Virus record (IMG/VR): IMGVR_UViG_2660237951_000006
DNA: 7,744 bases
From: a virus
Lineage: Duplodnaviria > Heunggongvirae > Uroviricota > Caudoviricetes
Strand: one strand, 5' to 3'
Part shown: positions 1-7,744 of the stretch, in pieces
How the letters are laid out: each line of letters begins with the position of its first letter
How positions within the stretch are numbered: position 1 is the stretch's first letter
Program-made: the position numbers and the translations under genes
Notes under the pieces: model-generated
What the model saw: only the letters and a program-made list of their open reading frames with translations
Told to the model about the DNA's origin: nothing
Database searches by the model: none

Positions 1-10
1 GAGTTGGGCT

Positions 11-238
11 TTAATCTCTTCCATTGTCAGAAGCATACTCAGCCCTCTTTACTGGTCGTGGCTTTTTCTCTTTTGCCGCTTTACTGCTTTTTGCACTGAT
101 TCCGCGCTCTGCTAACCCGGCCTGAAGTGCAATCTCCTGCACCCGGGCAGGAAGCGCCCCGTCGTCATACTCACCGGCCCGAATGACCTCAACACGCATA
201 CCGTCCGGTGACCATTTCAGATCTTGTTTCAGGATCAT
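11..238 (-). CDS. Hypothetical small phage protein (75 aa) immediately downstream of the major capsid gene; lysine-rich C-terminal tail
   Basis: Complete ORF with ATG at 238 and TAA at 11-13. A GGTGA-like Shine-Dalgarno lies about 6 nt upstream. Same strand and operon position as the head genes. I do not recognise a family from the sequence. Confidence 0.45.
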   Translation of the reverse strand: MILKQDLKWSPDGMRVEVIRAGEYDDGALPARVQEIALQAGLAERGISAKSSKAAKEKKPRPVKRAEYASDNGRD

Positions 239-261
239 GATTCTTCACCCGTCAGAACAGG

Positions 262-279
262 GGGCGCGGTTCCGCGCCC
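262..279 (-). other. GC-rich stem-loop between the capsid gene and the next ORF (7-bp stem GGGCGCG/CGCGCCC, 4-nt loop), with no U-tract
   Basis: Perfect inverted repeat read directly at 262-268 and 273-279. It sits 9 nt after the capsid stop codon. No T-run follows on either strand, so it is not a canonical intrinsic terminator. Confidence 0.4.
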
Positions 280-287
280 TTGAGTGA

Positions 288-1493
288 TTACGCCGCTGCA
301 ATCTTCAGCAGTTTGATGGCCTGCGAATCGACCAGCATCCCGCCGGTGCGCTTGGTGGTATAAAAACCGACAAACGGTTTATTGGTGTACGGGTCACGCA
401 GAATGCGGGTGCCGATACGGTCAACGATGGTGTAACCCCGTTTGAAGTTACCAAATGCAATGGCTTTCGCATCAGCGGCGATATCCGGCATCTGTTCGTT
501 TTCAGCGATACCGTAACCCGCCAGAGAGGACGGCTGCCCCAGCTCCAGCCCCGGACGCCACAGATAGTTACCCTCGGTGTCTTTCAGCAGACGGATGGCA
601 AACAGGCTGTTGTTGTTCATCATGAACTTCGCGCCAGTGCGGTGTGCCTTACGCAGCGTGTAAATCAGTTTGATAATGGCGTCTGCGGTCACCGCGGTCG
701 CTTCGCCGGATACAATATGCTGAAGTTTGCCGAACGCCCGGACCTTGTCGGTTTCATCGGTGGATTCATACGCCAGGAACCCTTTCGGCTTCTTGGTGCC
801 ATCGCCTGAGGTAAAGGCAATTTCTTCCTGTTCGGCAAATTCGGTTGCCAGCTCGCTGTTGATCCAGGCCTCCACGTTGAAGAAGGCATCGTCCAGCATT
901 TTCTGGGTAGCCTGCGGGTTGCCGTAGATTTCCCCCATGAGAGGTTCAATCAGCTCCAGTCTGGAGGTGGCAGTCTGGGATCGCGTATCCGTTTCCCCCA
1001 CCCATCCGGAAGCCGTACCGCCCAGATTCACCAGTTTTTTGTAGTCGGAACCGCCAACGGTGATCACCGTGGCTTCCTGACGCATCACCACTTCATCTTT
1101 CAGCAGGTTAAGAATGTTGCGATCCAGTTCTTCCGGCACGGCGTAGCCACCGTCTTCATCGGTACCCACCTGCAATGCCTTACGCTCCAGATCGCGCAGA
1201 CCGTCTTCACGGCCTTTACGCAGGAAGCCCACAAACGCCTCTTTATGCTCGGTGGCCAGTTTATTTTGCGCTCCACCAGCCGGACGTTTCAGCTCAAGCA
1301 GCTCTTTTTCAAGGTCGCTTTTGAGATTTTCCAGCTCGCTTAGTTTCCCGTTCAGGGTTTCCACCTGCCCGGCAAGCTTGCCTTTTTCCTGCTCAATCGC
1401 ATCCACGCGCTTGTCGTTCTTTGCTTTGAAGTCGTCAAACTTCTGCTGCAGCTCCTGCGCGACCTGTTCGACATCTTTAATATCAACCGCCAT
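288..1493 (-). CDS. Major capsid protein, HK97 family, with an N-terminal coiled-coil delta (scaffold-like) domain
   Basis: 401-aa ORF. The first ~100 residues are E/K/L-rich heptad-like coiled coil, typical of the HK97 delta domain, followed by a capsid-fold-sized body. It lies directly downstream of the prohead protease and portal genes, the canonical HK97 order. Confidence 0.9.
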   Translation of the reverse strand: MAVDIKDVEQVAQELQQKFDDFKAKNDKRVDAIEQEKGKLAGQVETLNGKLSELENLKSDLEKELLELKRPAGGAQNKLATEHKEAFVGFLRKGREDGLRDLERKALQVGTDEDGGYAVPEELDRNILNLLKDEVVMRQEATVITVGGSDYKKLVNLGGTASGWVGETDTRSQTATSRLELIEPLMGEIYGNPQATQKMLDDAFFNVEAWINSELATEFAEQEEIAFTSGDGTKKPKGFLAYESTDETDKVRAFGKLQHIVSGEATAVTADAIIKLIYTLRKAHRTGAKFMMNNNSLFAIRLLKDTEGNYLWRPGLELGQPSSLAGYGIAENEQMPDIAADAKAIAFGNFKRGYTIVDRIGTRILRDPYTNKPFVGFYTTKRTGGMLVDSQAIKLLKIAAA

Positions 1494-1507
1494 CGTATTT
1501 CTCCTGA

Positions 1508-2158
1508 TTAGAAGTTCAGATTTTTCAGTGCATTCAGTGCAGAGCCCACATCCTCAGCGTCGCGCAGGGACAGTGCGCCATAGCCCCCGGCCATGAATGC
1601 TTTGGCCTGGGTACGGGAGAGTCCGACATCACGCAGGACTCTTTCGATTTTTTTCTGTTCGGGGATTTCCCCGCGGGCCAGTGCGTTCTTGACGTCGCTG
1701 ATCCGCGCCTCGTCGTTAGACGGGAACGTCACCAGGCTGACTTCCCAGAGGTCGATTTCTTTCAGCAGAAAGGCTTCTTTGCTCCGGTCGTATTCCCAGT
1801 CTTTCAGGACGTACCCAATAGAAAGGCCGGTTAACGAACCGGCCTTCATGTGTGCATGTGCGCGTTTTGCGAGGGGATCATCATCAATAAGCAACCGTCC
1901 CCTGACGTAAAGCCCGACATCGTCTTCCTTCATTTCGGTGTAAACACCGATGGGTTCATCCATGCGGTGCTGCCAGAGCAGCGCAGGTAACGCTTTTCTG
2001 TCACTCCACGCCCGCAGGGAAGCAGCAAATGCCCCGGACATCACCACATCATCGTGGCTGTCCTTTACACCAAAGACGGAGCCATACCCTTCAAACTCAC
2101 CGGAGTCACTGACAGATTTCAGACTCAGCGGTACATCAAGACGTTGTTTCGTCTGCAT
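1508..2158 (-). CDS. Prohead maturation protease, HK97 gp4 family
   Basis: ORF lies between portal and capsid genes, the canonical position. Start chosen at the internal ATG at 2158 (MQTKQRLDV...), which has an AAGGA Shine-Dalgarno 8 nt upstream. The longest ORF start at 2194 has no Shine-Dalgarno and would overlap the portal gene by 59 nt. Confidence 0.85.
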   Translation of the reverse strand: MQTKQRLDVPLSLKSVSDSGEFEGYGSVFGVKDSHDDVVMSGAFAASLRAWSDRKALPALLWQHRMDEPIGVYTEMKEDDVGLYVRGRLLIDDDPLAKRAHAHMKAGSLTGLSIGYVLKDWEYDRSKEAFLLKEIDLWEVSLVTFPSNDEARISDVKNALARGEIPEQKKIERVLRDVGLSRTQAKAFMAGGYGALSLRDAEDVGSALNALKNLNF

Positions 2159-3377
2159 TGGCGTTATCCTTCTGCTTACCGGCTTTACTGCCATCGGAGG
2201 GTTTCGTGGTCATGTTCATCGGTGTGAGATAGACATCACCACCGGGACGCGGATTCATATCTTCCAGGTCGCGGCAGTCATTGGGAGAGTAAATTCCCCA
2301 GTTAATCCCGGTGGCGTAGGCTTCAAAACGGGACTTCATATCCCCGCGCAGTAACGCCCCGGCGTTAAATTTGGCGTAATAAACGCCCTGCTTACTTTTT
2401 CGTACCAGTCCGGTGTTGATCCGCTGTTCGATGCGGGTCAGATACGGCACCAGTGAATAGTTGATAAATCCCAGCCCCAGCTCTTCGATATTGTTGAAGG
2501 TGGCGCGATCGGTGTTCTGCACCATGTGCAACGGCACCCGGAACAGACGACAGATTTCTTCAAGCTGAAACTTGCGGGTTTCCAGGAACTGGCTGTCCTC
2601 GGCGTTCAGCGCCATCGACTTCCAGTCCAGCCCCATCTCAAGGATCATCGGGCGGTGAGCATTGCCAAGCCCGGTGTGACGCTCCTCAAAATCTTTCTTC
2701 AGGCGCTCATAAGCCTGATCTGACAGCGTCTGCTCTGTACGCAACACACCCGACGTCACCGCGCCATTGCTGAACAGTCTGGCCCCGTGCTCTTCGGTCG
2801 CAGCTGCCAGCGATATTGCCTCGCGGGCATAGGCGATGGGATTCAGCCCCACCAGTCCGTCCAGCGTCAGCGTGCGCACATGCCAGATATCCTCCTGGCT
2901 CAGTACATCCGTGGAGCCATCCGGGAATGTGACCTGATAGATCGGCTCCCAGCTACTGTTAAGCTTCGGTACCACACAGCCGGGATCGACGGGCAGCAGT
3001 TCAGCCACTTCGCCAAATGCTTTCACTTTGTAGGCGTAAAAGTTTCCCCGCAGGCACAGACAGGTGACCACCAGCTCCCAGAACTCCTGCGGCGTCATAT
3101 AGCCATTGGGATGCGTGGAGATCAGTTTATGCAGACGTTCGCCGGTGGCTCTCTGCTTCAGGCTGCCGTTCAGGTGATACAGATTGCAGGGCAACATCCC
3201 GACCGACTCTGCCAGCACTCTGACGCAGGAAAAAACCGCCGTCAGTCGCATGGCCCGCTGACTGCTGATCTGCTTTCCGGTATAGGTGTCGTAGGACAAC
3301 CCGATGGCATCCGCCAGCTCTGCTGGCGTGGTCACCGGTGCGTCACTTTTTCGTTGAAATAATCCCGAAAAGAACAC
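2136..3377 (-). CDS. Portal protein, HK97 family
   Basis: 413-aa ORF directly downstream of the terminase large subunit. GTG start at 3377 is preceded by a strong GGAGG 6 nt upstream. The start overlaps the stop of the upstream mini-ORF (TAGTG). Confidence 0.9.
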   Translation of the reverse strand: MFFSGLFQRKSDAPVTTPAELADAIGLSYDTYTGKQISSQRAMRLTAVFSCVRVLAESVGMLPCNLYHLNGSLKQRATGERLHKLISTHPNGYMTPQEFWELVVTCLCLRGNFYAYKVKAFGEVAELLPVDPGCVVPKLNSSWEPIYQVTFPDGSTDVLSQEDIWHVRTLTLDGLVGLNPIAYAREAISLAAATEEHGARLFSNGAVTSGVLRTEQTLSDQAYERLKKDFEERHTGLGNAHRPMILEMGLDWKSMALNAEDSQFLETRKFQLEEICRLFRVPLHMVQNTDRATFNNIEELGLGFINYSLVPYLTRIEQRINTGLVRKSKQGVYYAKFNAGALLRGDMKSRFEAYATGINWGIYSPNDCRDLEDMNPRPGGDVYLTPMNMTTKPSDGSKAGKQKDNANADETTS

Positions 3378-3559
3378 TATTTACCTCCACCAACAGACAG
3401 CTGTGTACGGTCGAGATATCGCGCTACCAGCCACGACCAGAACAGGCACAACGCCCCGGCAACAACAAACCCCGCCGGGGGATAAATCAGCCAGGCACCA
3501 TACGCCAGCAAAAGCGCCCCCAGCACGCCCACCAGAGGCGCGAGAATCAGCATGATCAT
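3377..3559 (-). CDS. Small hydrophobic protein (60 aa) with two predicted transmembrane helices, inserted between terminase large subunit and portal
   Basis: ATG at 3559 with a GAGGT Shine-Dalgarno 5 nt upstream that overlaps the terminase stop. Its TAG stop overlaps the portal GTG start. Sequence [49 protein letters not shown] gives two hydrophobic segments separated by a PP turn, then a short polar tail. Confidence 0.55.
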
Positions 3560-3570
3560 AATTACCTCAG

Positions 3571-5304
3571 TTAAAGCGAGCGGATCCCATAGGACTCAAT
3601 GTGGTCAGACAGCGTGTCTTCTTTCTCGTACAGCATGGCTCTGCCAACCGCCATAATCAGCGCAACTGCACCGTCAATTTTGTTTTCCGCCTGCTCTTTG
3701 ACGGGTTTCACCACATCATCGTTACCCGGAATGGTTTTGCCGACCACATTGCCGATACACCAGGTCATGATGGGATTGCCATCATGATGAAAGCGCCCCG
3801 ATTCAATTGCCGCTTCCAGCTCTTTCATCGGGTCGGACATGTTGGTGTAGTTCTGAATGATAGTGACGGGATTCAGGTCTTCATCAGCAAGGTCATGTGA
3901 CAACCCGGTCGCCCCGAAGGGGTCGATGGGTGACTCACTGACCGGGCTGATTTTGTTCGCCGCTTTGGCCTCCTCGAGGATGTAGCGATAATCCACCTCC
4001 GCACCATCGGTAACGGTCAGAACGCCCATTTCCACCCATTTCTGAAAGCGTTCGGCTGTCCGGCGATCTTCATTTTTCTCGACGCTGTACACCGTGTCAT
4101 ACGGTACCCAGAAGCGCGGAGCCACACTGTAGTAATGCGTTTTACCGTCAATCTCGCGGGTATAAAGTCGCGCCATGCTGTTCATATCCAGCTTACGCGC
4201 CAGGTCAAAGGCCAGAATGCACGGTTGCCCCTCGAACTGCTCAAGGGTCAGTGATTTATCCTCGCAGCTCTGCCAGCTCACCAGGTTGAAATACGCCGAA
4301 CGCGCCGACACCCAGATATTGAGGTGTTTTGTTTTAAAGACGTTTGCCAGACGGGCGTTATTTTTCGCACGCTGCTGCTGACTTAACAAAAATTCGCGAT
4401 AAACCGACACGCCAATATTCGGGTTAGCTTTTTCCAGCACCTGCGGGTCGGTCCAGTCATCACCTTCATCAACGGTATAGATGATCCCGAACAGTTCATC
4501 GTTGGGCACCGAGCCGTTGAGCATCTCGATGACTTCCCGCCGCTTGTCGTAGCACGGCCCCTCAATGTTGTACCCGGCAGTAGTAATGGCCCACATCAGT
4601 GGCTGACGTCGCGCCCCCATCCCGGTAAGCATCGTGGTGTAAAGCGCATCGGTGGCGTGCTCGTGATATTCATCCACCACCGCACAGTGGGGTGATGAAC
4701 CATCACCGGGGTTACCGATCAGCGGTTCAAACCGCGCGCCATCCTCCGGACGATTCATGTTTGAGGCGTTAACCTCAATCCCGAACGCTTCCGTCAGCAT
4801 GGGTGTGCGTTTACACATCAGTCGCGCCGGGCGAAAGACTTCCCACGCCTGTTTCTCTGTCGTGGCACCGGAATACACTTCCGCGCCAAACTCGTTATCA
4901 CAGGCAAAACAATACAGGGCAACACCGGCAGAGATTGCCGATTTGCCGTTCTTACGGGGGATTTCGGTATACACCTCCCGGAAGCGGCGCAGCCGGGACC
5001 CTTTATTGACCCAGCCAAACGCACAGCAGACCACAAATAGCTGCCACGGCTCCAGCGTGATGGGCATCCTCTTGAATGCCCACTCACCCTTGGTGTGCGG
5101 CAACAGCTGAATAAATTTGGCGGCCCGTTCAGCCAGGTCCTTGTCGAAGCGGTAACGAAACGACTTACTTTTTTCCGCCATCAGGTCATCAAGATGGCGC
5201 TGGCAGGCCTGAATCACAAACTGGCAGGCCACAATCTTTCCGCGCACAACATCACGGGCATACTGATTGGCAGCATTTACGTTGGGGTAAGATTTCCGGC
5301 TCAT
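3571..5304 (-). CDS. Terminase large subunit (ATPase/nuclease)
   Basis: 577-aa ORF. Walker A-like GKS motif ([11 protein letters not shown]) and Walker B-like VVDEYHE in the N-terminal half. The ATG start overlaps the small-subunit stop (ATGA) at 5301-5304. Confidence 0.92.
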
Positions 5305-5795
5305 GACTCGATGATTTTCAGAAACGGGTTAGTGGCTTTCTTCTGCCCCGCCAGGCCAATCAGACGCTGGCGGCTGCTGGGGTCGAGTCCGAGCATTGCC
5401 CCCGTGCTGCTCATCTCGGACTCCTGTTCTTTTTTGGCGGTCAGCTCCGGATTTTTGACCCTGCCGCCCATTGCACCGGTGATGGTGTTGCCCTGTATGG
5501 CAATATTTTTCACGGCACGTCGCCAGAACTCATAGGCCACGCACCACCGCTCAAGCACCGCGAGGTCAGTCACGCACAACAGGCCATGACCGCAGAGTTC
5601 TTTGGTTGTCAGTTGCCACATGATCGTGGCGAGAGGGAGATCTTCTTCAGCGAACCACTCTGGTGGCTCAACACCTTTGATGGGCGTAAAAACAGGTTCA
5701 TCTTTGTTCAGGGCTCGCTTGCCGGGGTTTCCGGCCAGCGCCTTGCGCGCCGTTGGCTTGGGGCGACGCCCGGAACGCCCCGCCGTTCCAGCCAT
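5301..5795 (-). CDS. Terminase small subunit (P27 / HK97 gp1-like)
   Basis: About 164 aa, basic N-terminus, immediately upstream of and overlapping the large subunit. Start placed at ATG 5795, which has AGGAG 8 nt upstream. The track's GTG at 5804 has no properly spaced Shine-Dalgarno. Confidence 0.8.
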
Positions 5796-5845
5796 ATGCG
5801 GCACTCCTGGTTAAATTTCATTTTTCGCGGGTATAAAAAAACGAT

Positions 5846-5894
5846 GGGGCGGGCAGTCCGGAAGACGCCAGGTCACAGGGATTTGACCCGCCCC
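5846..5894. repeat. GC-rich inverted repeat GGGGCGGG (5846-5853) / CCCGCCCC (5887-5894) separated by 33 nt, in the HNH-terminase intergenic region
   Basis: Read directly from the sequence. On the minus-strand transcript the structure is followed by AUCGUUUUUUUAUA. It lies where the cos site is expected in HK97-like genomes. Confidence 0.4.
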
Positions 5895-5920
5895 TCCCCT
5901 CAGACAGTTGAGAATTATTA

Positions 5921-6271: not shown

Positions 6272-6570
6272 ATGTACTAATCTCCGATTTATCCAAATTT
6301 CACTGCCATAATGCCGACATTCTCTGCCATTATTGGCTCCGTTTATCCGTTAAAAGGGATATCAGTTAAGTTATCCCGTGTAGGGTATAAGCCATTGTCG
6401 AGACCACTCATTGAATGGCCTCTGCAATAACCGATGTCTTTCCATCAGTCCGCCACCACAAAGAATCTTTTTTGCCATAAGGCAGGAGGTTCATCTTTCA
6501 GTGGCTGCCAGTGTTATTTCCCCACTTACTGGCTTGGGTTGCTTCGTGGTACTGCCGTAACTGGTGGTGC

Positions 6571-6590
6571 ACAGATTTAGTTAAATCTGT
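6571..6590. repeat. 20-bp near-perfect palindrome ACAGATTTA-GT-TAAATCTGT (9-bp arms, 2-bp spacer)
   Basis: Read directly: left arm 6571-6579, right arm 6582-6590, exact reverse complements. It lies inside the ~410-bp ORF-free stretch. Confidence 0.5.
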
Positions 6591-6681
6591 TCTCGCCTGA
6601 ACTATCTTTTACATACCCGGATTGTGGGGTGTAAATCACGGTTTCATTATCAAGCCCACCCGTAGATGTGCTTTGGAATGG

Positions 6682-6882
6682 CTACTGGCGGTCATTATGC
6701 TCGTAACGAGATACCGTCTTCCCGTTCTGGTTCATCACGTAGGCGACCTCGCCAGGTTTCAGGAATACATTTTTGTCCATTCCCGATACCGCGATGCTCT
6801 GCTGCCCCGGATTGAACCCTACACTCAACCCGCAATGAATCTCTTCACCGCCACCTGGCGACATTACTTTTACTGTTAACAT
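6682..6882 (-). CDS. Hypothetical small protein (66 aa) between the lysis cassette and the HNH gene; possible moron
   Basis: ATG at 6882 with GGAG 7 nt upstream and a TAG stop at 6682-6684. Same strand as the surrounding operon. No family recognised. An 85-aa plus-strand ORF overlaps it in antisense and was judged less likely. Confidence 0.45.
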   Translation of the reverse strand: MLTVKVMSPGGGEEIHCGLSVGFNPGQQSIAVSGMDKNVFLKPGEVAYVMNQNGKTVSRYEHNDRQ

Positions 6883-6906
6883 GCTTCTTCTCCTGCTTCT
6901 TCTGGG

Positions 6907-6934
6907 AATAAAAAAGCCCGACCGAAGTCAGGCT
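6907..6934 (-). terminator. Rho-independent terminator at the end of the lysis cassette
   Basis: On the minus-strand RNA: 8-bp stem AGCCUGAC/GUCGGGCU (one G-U wobble) with a UUCG tetraloop, then UUUUUUAUU. It starts 19 nt after the Rz stop. The plus-strand version has a C-A mismatch and no trailing U-run, so it is strand-specific. Confidence 0.65.
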
Positions 6935-6953
6935 CTGTTATTTGGGTGACGAA

Positions 6954-7394
6954 TCACTTAAGACACTGCTCTTTGATGTATTCCTGCAAATATCCAACCT
7001 GTTTCGTCACTGTGACGATTCGCTCTCTGAGGGTGAAATAATCCCGTTCAGCGGAGTCAGTAAGTCGGGGGCCGGTAACATCGCCCAGGCCGCCGGTGCT
7101 GGTCGTTCCGTTCGCGGGACAGTTTGCGTTGAGCTGCAGCCGCTTACGGCCAGCAGAAACATCAGCACGGAGACTTTCGATAGTAGCGTTAGCATCAGCA
7201 AGCTCCTTTGTGTATCTGGCGTCGAGTTCTGCTACATCACGTTGACGCTTCTGCATGTCAGCGATTGTGGATGCGGCTTTATCGCGCTGTTCTTTGTAGG
7301 CGATGGCGTTATCACGGTAATGATTAACAGCCCATGACAGGCAGACGATGATGCAGATAACCAGAGCGGAGATAATCGCGGTTACTCTGCTCAT
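6954..7394 (-). CDS. Rz: Rz inner-membrane spanin (i-spanin), lambda Rz-like
   Basis: 146-aa ORF with an N-terminal transmembrane segment ([23 protein letters not shown]) and a coiled-coil periplasmic domain. The N-terminus and the [10 protein letters not shown] motif match my recollection of lambda Rz. The ATG overlaps the endolysin stop (ATGA). Confidence 0.9.
7007..7201 (-). CDS. Rz1: Rz1 outer-membrane lipoprotein spanin (o-spanin), embedded in the +1 frame of Rz
   Basis: ORF lies entirely inside Rz in another frame. Signal peptide with lipobox LAVSGC, a proline-rich mature part, and the C-terminal motif [11 protein letters not shown] shared with lambda Rz1. The true start may be a downstream Met. 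Confidence 0.85.
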
Positions 7395-7744
7395 ACCTCA
7401 ATCTCTCTGACCGTTCCGCCAGCTTCTTTGAATTTTGCAATCAGGCTGTCAGCCTTATGCTCGAACTGACCATAACCAGCGCCCGGCAGTGAAGCCCAGA
7501 TATTGCTGCAACGGTCGATTGCCTGACGAATATCGCCGCGATCAATCATTGGTAAAGCGCCACGTTCTTTAATCTGCTGCAGAGCTACAGCGTCCTGGCT
7601 TTCTGGAGAAAAATCTTTCAGGCCAAGCTGTTTACGGTAAGCATCCCACCAGCGTGAAAGAAGCTGGTAACGTCCGGCAGCTGTTGATTTGAGTTTGGGG
7701 TTTAGCGTGACAAGTTTGCGAGGGTGATCGGAGTAATCAGTGAA
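7391..7744 (-). CDS. R: Endolysin (lambda R-type lytic transglycosylase), 3' portion; the N-terminus lies beyond the window edge
   Basis: My own translation of the minus strand from 7744 gives [117 protein letters not shown], then a stop. This matches my recollection of the lambda R C-terminus almost residue for residue. The track omits it because no start codon is inside the window. Confidence 0.9.

Follow-up and report, generated by a model that had tools for sequence, protein, structure and literature searches.

The Rz/Rz1 pair of bacteriophage lambda (NP_040646, YP_001551744) is the archetype of the embedded two-component spanins. In the passages of PMC6139136 and PMC5295617 that deal with lambda: (i) Rz is anchored in the inner membrane, Rz1 is an outer-membrane lipoprotein and the subunits form disulfide-linked homodimers, (ii) Rz and Rz1 bind through their C-termini and fuse the membranes after the holin and endolysin have acted, and (iii) at least one of the Rz C152 and Rz1 C29 disulfides is required. 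Where PMC6139136 reports its survey of embedded spanins, about 70% of the nested genes start at 0.4-0.5 L and end at 0.9-1 L.

The gp72 Rz of HK97 holds a nested Rz1 that is unannotated, and the same type is found in P22-like phages (Gally, Sf6, HK544 and others). The genes of HK97 follow the order holin, lambda-type endolysin, Rz, KilA-N gene, HNH gene (gp74), cos and terminase.

The locus described here lies in a 7,744-nt stretch of phage DNA (the window, meaning the whole stretch that was analysed). Positions 6954-7394 of the minus strand almost certainly encode a two-component spanin of the lambda family, both subunits included, with one gene embedded in the other, as read from the ORFs, their frames and overlap, the lipobox, homology and genomic context. 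The pair is an ordinary and already known one, in keeping with a preliminary description of this DNA, which had called the architecture well described and not novel; it is a textbook embedded spanin pair, and nothing contradicts the assignment.

The Rz gene and the lysis cassette

The Rz gene and its upstream neighbor include the following features:

7391..7744, minus strand: 3' part of the endolysin gene, encoding residues 42-158 of a 158-aa lambda R-type transglycosylase (BLASTP, PHROG)
7391..7394, minus strand: ATGA overlap of the endolysin stop (TGA, 7393..7391) with the Rz start (ATG, 7394..7392), read from the sequence
6954..7394, minus strand: Rz, the i-spanin or inner-membrane subunit, 146 aa (ATG ORF; Pfam, PHROG, lambda alignment)
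7326..7385, minus strand: predicted N-terminal transmembrane anchor of Rz, residues 4-23 (likeness to lambda Rz)
7119-7121, minus strand: Cys92 codon of Rz, equivalent to lambda Rz C99 (alignment and list of cysteines)
6963..6965, minus strand: Cys144 codon of Rz, equivalent to lambda Rz C152 (alignment and list of cysteines)

In the ORF list, the endolysin, Rz and Rz1 genes of the window are all on the minus strand; the preliminary description had placed Rz correctly at 6954-7394 but left its strand unstated. Rz is matched by Pfam PF03245 (Rz lysis protein; E = 1.8e-40, 138.5 bits, cutoff 25.4) and by PHROG 13 (Rz-like spanin; E = 2.1e-71), while NCBIfam returned no meaningful match for Rz, Rz1, the endolysin fragment or the 66-aa ORF that lies downstream. 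Alignment with the lambda lysis proteins gave identities of 64% for Rz over its full length, 97% (114/117, BLASTP) for the endolysin fragment against residues 42-158 of R, and 53% for Rz1 in an alignment that starts at Met1. Residues 1-31 of Rz, membrane anchor included, are identical to those of lambda Rz, and residues 4-23 presumably serve as a type II signal anchor, a role carried over from established lambda work. A protein with precisely this Rz sequence is deposited under the name 'lysis protein [Escherichia coli]' and occurs on 14 contigs.

The endolysin stop overlaps the Rz start in the classic lambda arrangement, as had been proposed. The minus strand of 7420..7370 reads GAGAGATTGAGGTATGAGCAGAGTA, with the endolysin/Rz junction as GAGAGATTGAGGTATGAGCAGAG, and the R/Rz junction of lambda is identical in kind (GAGAGATTGATGTATGAGCAGAGTC, GAGAGATTGATGTATGAGCAGAG); in the lambda record (L001), R occupies 994-1470 and Rz 1467-1928, a 4-nt overlap as in the window. 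As the Rz start lies at the ATGA overlap, the message of the S-R-Rz late operon is read without a gap. The Shine-Dalgarno sequence of Rz is badly spaced, with GAGG only 1 nt before the ATG. Translational coupling from the endolysin to Rz at the ATGA is a plausible reading of this junction.

The endolysin fragment matches PHROG 90 (endolysin; E = 1.5e-47), and Pfam returned no match for this truncated form. The 5' end of the gene, with the region of the catalytic Glu19, is beyond the window edge; in colinear contigs this part is intact (...AWSEGT...). A look-up of the exact Rz protein led to six loci, of which three (L009, L012 and L013) are colinear with the window at 98.8-99.2% identity, gapless over 5.8-6.8 kb. 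These three contigs carry a 108-aa lambda-family holin (PF05106) and the full 158-aa endolysin directly upstream of Rz, and the antiterminator gene is also intact upstream in the colinear contigs. The spanin pair is thus placed at the distal end of a holin-endolysin cassette, the holin being seen in the colinear contigs. The family models, the comparison with lambda R, Rz and Rz1 and the near-identical contigs all agree on a lambda-type lysis cassette, as first described. None of the six loci differs from the others in its Rz or Rz1 protein, and the Rz nucleotide sequences differ by two synonymous changes alone, both of them outside the overlap.

Sequences related to the window are widespread in Escherichia coli. 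Some part of the full 7.7-kb window is matched in 5146 of 5426 complete E. coli genomes, at 13,108 places (median of 2 per genome), and some part of the stretch 6560-7400 is matched in 5074 complete genomes, none of which covers 80% or more of that stretch. A 54-nt pattern that spans the Rz-terminator junction has no exact match in the species-representative genomes of GTDB. Most E. coli prophages are defective, and many of the 13,108 match places must sit in cryptic elements; the completeness or inducibility of a prophage is, moreover, not readable from a 7.7-kb window. It might then be argued that the cassette is decaying within a cryptic prophage and is still recognisable but no longer used for lysis. 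This is improbable, as the ORFs from the endolysin through the major capsid protein are all intact, with little space between them, three independent contigs are about 99% colinear with the window without gaps, the holin, endolysin and antiterminator genes upstream are intact in the colinear contigs, and the Rz and Rz1 proteins are the same in six contigs, with synonymous changes alone in the Rz nucleotide sequence. 

The nested Rz1 gene

Three features define Rz1 within the Rz gene:

7007..7195, minus strand: Rz1, the o-spanin, a 62-aa prolipoprotein with a predicted mature form of 43 aa (+1 frame inside Rz; Pfam, PHROG)
7203..7208, minus strand: AAGGAG Shine-Dalgarno sequence of Rz1, 7 nt before ATG 7195 (sequence)
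7136..7147, minus strand: Rz1 lipobox V-S-G-C, residues 17-20 (regular expression [LVI][ASTVI][GAS]C)

The longest nested ORF of the minus strand encodes 64 aa from an alternative TTG start at 7201 to 7007; the distance from the Rz start (7394 - 7201 = 193 = 64 x 3 + 1) sets this inner ORF in the +1 frame. The preliminary description had put Rz1 at 7007-7201; its nesting in the +1 frame of Rz stands, but its start does not. The more likely start of Rz1 is an ATG two codons further in, at 7195, offset by 199 nt (+1 frame) from the Rz start, since the alignment with lambda Rz1 begins there and AAGGAG is found 7 nt upstream (the sequence before the start is ACAAAGGAGCTTGCTG, then ATG). Rz1 lies wholly within Rz, from 0.45 to 0.88 L of the Rz length. 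Compared to the embedded spanins in the survey as reported in PMC6139136, the start is typical and the end is close to typical.

Rz1 is matched by Pfam PF06085 (lipoprotein Rz1 precursor; E = 5.7e-15, 55.2 bits, cutoff 27.9) and by PHROG 3198 (Rz-like spanin; E = 1.9e-24). A lipobox, the lack of which the preliminary description had named as a refutation, is present: VSGC fits the consensus expression, and Cys20 is predicted to be the lipidated residue. The +2 residue is Ser and, thus, no signal for retention in the inner membrane is present. The mature protein of 43 residues has seven prolines. The Rz genes of lambda, HK97, Gally and two E. coli prophages were compared, and a nested +1 ORF bearing a lipobox is found in all five in spite of considerable divergence. 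The lipobox cysteine and a PxPxAW core are invariant among the five aligned Rz1 proteins. Rz1 of the window has no second cysteine and, hence, no counterpart of lambda C29.

Whether the nested frame is a gene at all was weighed against chance. In 20,000 shuffles of the Rz codon order, a +1 ORF of at least 62 aa arises in 30% of cases; ORF length alone is therefore insignificant and was dropped as evidence, and it is homology and conservation that carry the case for Rz1. A collection of 15 billion proteins in which the exact Rz is deposited has no entry with the exact Rz1 sequence, which indicates that no gene caller has annotated it. Both observations would suit a reading in which only Rz is real and the nested +1 ORF is an unexpressed by-product of Rz codon composition. 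Such a reading is very improbable, however, given that: (i) Rz1 scores above the Pfam gathering threshold and matches PHROG 3198, (ii) it is 53% identical to the experimentally proven lambda Rz1 from the start codon onward, (iii) the consensus lipobox comes with a correctly spaced AAGGAG, and an ORF of this length with a lipobox in its first 30 residues arises in just 0.5% of the shuffles, and (iv) the ORF and its cysteine are conserved in five of five lambda-family relatives. Embedded o-spanin genes are, furthermore, usually missing from protein databases built with automatic gene callers, and the absence of Rz1 is of this usual kind. The window provides another case of an embedded o-spanin that goes uncalled, with the exact Rz deposited and the exact Rz1 not.

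That the plus-strand ORFs antisense to Rz (6942-7337, 131 aa, and 7096-7245, 49 aa) are real genes has next to no probability, for although they match phrog_17757 (E = 1.6e-17) and phrog_35444 (E = 8e-11), both of these families are of unknown function and most simply consist of ORFs mis-called opposite a highly conserved Rz, the neighboring genes are all on the minus strand in an uninterrupted late operon, the 131-aa ORF begins with TTG inside the Rz terminator region, no such ORF is annotated opposite Rz in lambda, HK97, Gally or the two E. coli prophages, and E. coli records annotated by PGAP call only Rz here. The two ORFs were rejected as members of families of mis-called antisense ORFs. 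As phrog_17757 and phrog_35444 were probably built from such mis-annotations, a PHROG match alone should not count as evidence of a gene.

Flanking elements and module exchange

Two features are found downstream of Rz:

6906..6936, minus strand: intrinsic terminator-like hairpin and T-run, 18 nt past the Rz stop (terminator scan)
6682..6882, minus strand: 66-aa ORF, not a component of the spanin (PHROG 3909, unknown function, E = 8.1e-37)

The hairpin (6936..6913) has a 10-bp stem with five G-C pairs and a loop of 4 nt, followed by TTTTATT. The sole Rfam match in the window, to the isrJ sRNA (RF01393) at 6982..6912 of the minus strand, spans the last Rz codons, a UCGUC..CCAAA stretch and this hairpin; it was rejected, as it scores 27.2 bits compared to a gathering score of 37 and is carried mostly by the hairpin. 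Genuine isrJ is located on Salmonella Gifsy-1 between STM2614 and STM2616 (PMC2330248). The sub-threshold match might reflect a distant common ancestry of prophage 3' ends or just the hairpin.

The 66-aa ORF is preceded by a strong ribosome-binding site (AGGAGAAGAAGC, then ATG) and has no match in Pfam or NCBIfam. Its sequence is identical beside the same Rz in the six loci (L008-L013), including those with other head modules, and the exact protein is on at least 1000 contigs. The 90% cluster of this protein includes members from E. coli, Enterobacter, Klebsiella and Raoultella, of which one is named 'FHA domain-containing protein' by a single source, and relatives of about 72% nucleotide identity are noted in many Klebsiella phage records, some of them very large (100-290 kb).

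Comparison of related prophages locates the junction between the lysis and head modules. The E. coli prophages that share the head module (97-98.5% identity) run colinear with the window as far as 6560 or 6680, past which they bear Rha, KilA-N or another type of Rz. From the other side, three contigs with different head modules, among them one with a lambda-type GpA terminase and portal, share the block 6645-7744 (endolysin, Rz/Rz1, terminator and 66-aa ORF) at 97.6-97.8% identity. The comparative breakpoints (6560, 6645 and 6680) fall within 6272-6953, where a module junction had been anticipated, and the R-Rz/Rz1-66-aa-ORF block adjoins three different head modules. The window is from an E. 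coli lambdoid (pro)phage, with a lysis module that is exchangeable against different head modules.

The description of the locus as a mosaic of lambda lysis genes and HK97 head genes holds for the junction but is loosely framed, as HK97 carries the same S-R-Rz cassette; with S-R-Rz placed before HNH and terminase in HK97 itself, the order of the window is normal for this group of phages. The window and its colinear contigs have the HK97-type head and packaging order of HNH, small and large terminase, portal, S78 protease and HK97-fold capsid, with Pfam matches to HNH and Terminase_4 in the window and to PF03354/PF20441, PF04860, PF04586 and PF05065 on the colinear contigs. Compared to HK97, the amino acid identity of the head module is 26-38%, with no match for the small terminase, and a blastn comparison of the head module to HK97 returned no match. 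On these sequence comparisons, the head module is HK97-type at the family level only and belongs to the SfII/SfI/ST64B group. Its relatives are SfII, SfI and SfIV of Shigella, ST64B of Salmonella and phiP27, with a P27-family small terminase and an HK97-fold capsid; window positions 1-5920 are 97.5-98.1% identical in nucleotide sequence to SfII, SfI and SfIV and about 89% identical to ST64B. The gene order HNH, TerS, TerL, portal, protease and major capsid protein is common to the window and the SfII group. The Rz region recorded for SfI matches that of the window at 88% identity.

Several further observations concern the packaging side of the window. As deposited, the linear SfII, SfIV, SfI and ST64B genomes start at positions that correspond to 5920, 5862, 5844 and 5810 of the window, respectively; these genome ends (region 5805-5920) suggest that cos is probably in the gap between the HNH and small terminase genes, as in HK97. 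A minus-strand ORF at 3377-3559, between the large terminase and portal genes, encodes a hydrophobic protein of 60 aa that is named 'protein YmfR' in E. coli RefSeq and 'head-tail joining protein W' in vB_EcoM-720R4. Upstream of the HNH gene, the stretch 6321-6681 has no minus-strand ORF of 40 aa or more and no Rfam match. Positions 6321-6558 are 97% identical to HK97, in the unannotated gap before gp74, and 6435-6681 are 98% identical to P22-like Gally, just downstream of its Rha gene. This stretch is strongly conserved even where the packaging systems of the phages differ; candidate roles are a conserved joint for recombination, a regulatory element or an RNA element.

Spanins of other types are found beside similar head modules. 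The vB_EcoM-720R4 locus (L003, 7800-8349) has an unrelated Rz and an o-spanin gene that is overlapped rather than embedded, with the lipobox LTGC. A second locus (L002, 8198-8805) encodes a 155-aa Rz and a longer nested Rz1 with the lipobox VAGC and a second cysteine. Near-identical head modules with quite different spanins indicate that the spanin type is freely exchanged relative to the head.

Proposed spanin function and comparison with lambda and HK97

By analogy with lambda, Rz would be held in the inner membrane by an N-terminal transmembrane anchor, in type II topology, with a helical domain in the periplasm, for which full-length homology to lambda Rz suggests two coiled coils and a linker (CC1, linker, CC2). 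The Rz1 precursor would be translated from its own Shine-Dalgarno sequence and the ATG at 7195 inside Rz, exported, lipidated at Cys20 of VSGC and sorted to the outer membrane. The C-terminal parts of Rz and Rz1 may then bind across the periplasm. Once the holin opens the inner membrane and the lambda R-type endolysin cuts the peptidoglycan, the spanin complexes would be freed to fuse the inner and outer membranes in the last step of lysis. The topology, disulfide-linked dimers and membrane fusion of this scheme are taken from lambda genetics. Cys92 and Cys144 of Rz, which align with C99 and C152 of lambda, are candidate periplasmic cysteines for homotypic disulfides between molecules, and Cys144 keeps one of the two positions of which lambda needs at least one. 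As Rz1 is without Cys29 and has PAPA for the penta-proline, the genetic details of lambda may not transfer one to one.

The sequence of the Rz/Rz1 gene is itself of mixed likeness, with one feature of note:

7009..7068, minus strand: lambda-like patch inside Rz/Rz1 (sliding identity, with which the ends of BLAST segments agree)

The patch is 82-90% identical to lambda in sliding comparisons vs 60-62% to HK97 and Gally. The preceding part of the gene (7394-7130) shows about 95-100% identity to both HK97 and Gally, leaving aside the columns that a 7-codon insertion of lambda disrupts, and the last 55 nt of Rz have no close resemblance to lambda, HK97 or Gally. Judged from these identities, the Rz/Rz1 gene is a small-scale hybrid of HK97-type and lambda-type sequence.

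A bolder proposal is that the pair is a natural recombinant spanin of the HK97 and lambda types, in which the o-spanin lacks the Cys29 disulfide and the penta-proline, both of which lambda genetics marks as important. This is regarded as unlikely. If it were true and the lambda rules were strict, function would rest wholly on the Rz Cys144 disulfide and a reduced PxPxAW core, and, with the genes nested, the C-terminal parts through which the two subunits interact could only have been exchanged together; as a natural experiment, the pair could then show which spanin motifs are indispensable. For the ordinary embedded pair that is favored here, the spanin genes mark the window as the place where lysis and packaging genes meet in an E. 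coli lambdoid (pro)phage, with a clean example of module exchange and with within-gene recombination inside an overlapping gene pair. Module exchange and within-gene recombination have long been established for lambdoid phages, and the importance of the locus beyond annotation is little.

Similarly to lambda, the window has Rz1 inside Rz in the +1 frame, an ATGA overlap with R and a position at the end of an S-R-Rz cassette, and it shares with lambda both Rz cysteines, a lipobox and an 11-residue C-terminal motif of Rz1. By contrast, the window Rz has 7 fewer residues in its first helical region, and the window Rz1 has Thr at the position of Cys29, PAPA instead of the PPPPP of lambda and the lipobox VSGC instead of VVGC. 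Downstream of Rz are the 66-aa ORF and the HNH gene in the window, compared to bor in lambda. Like HK97, the window has the gene order S-R-Rz, variable slot, HNH and terminase, the slot after Rz being occupied by KilA-N in HK97, Rha in Gally and the 66-aa ORF in the window. The nucleotide identity to HK97 is 92% over 7079-7744, rising to 95-100% in the 5' two-thirds of Rz; the Rz1 signal peptide, which begins MLT(R/L), is nearly the same, and the window Rz1 is without a second cysteine, as in HK97-type Rz1 proteins. Unlike HK97, the distal third of the window Rz/Rz1 gene is only about 60% identical in nucleotide sequence and includes the lambda-like patch, and the C-terminus of the window Rz1 differs from that of HK97 Rz1 (MLNSIITVSEVESTG).
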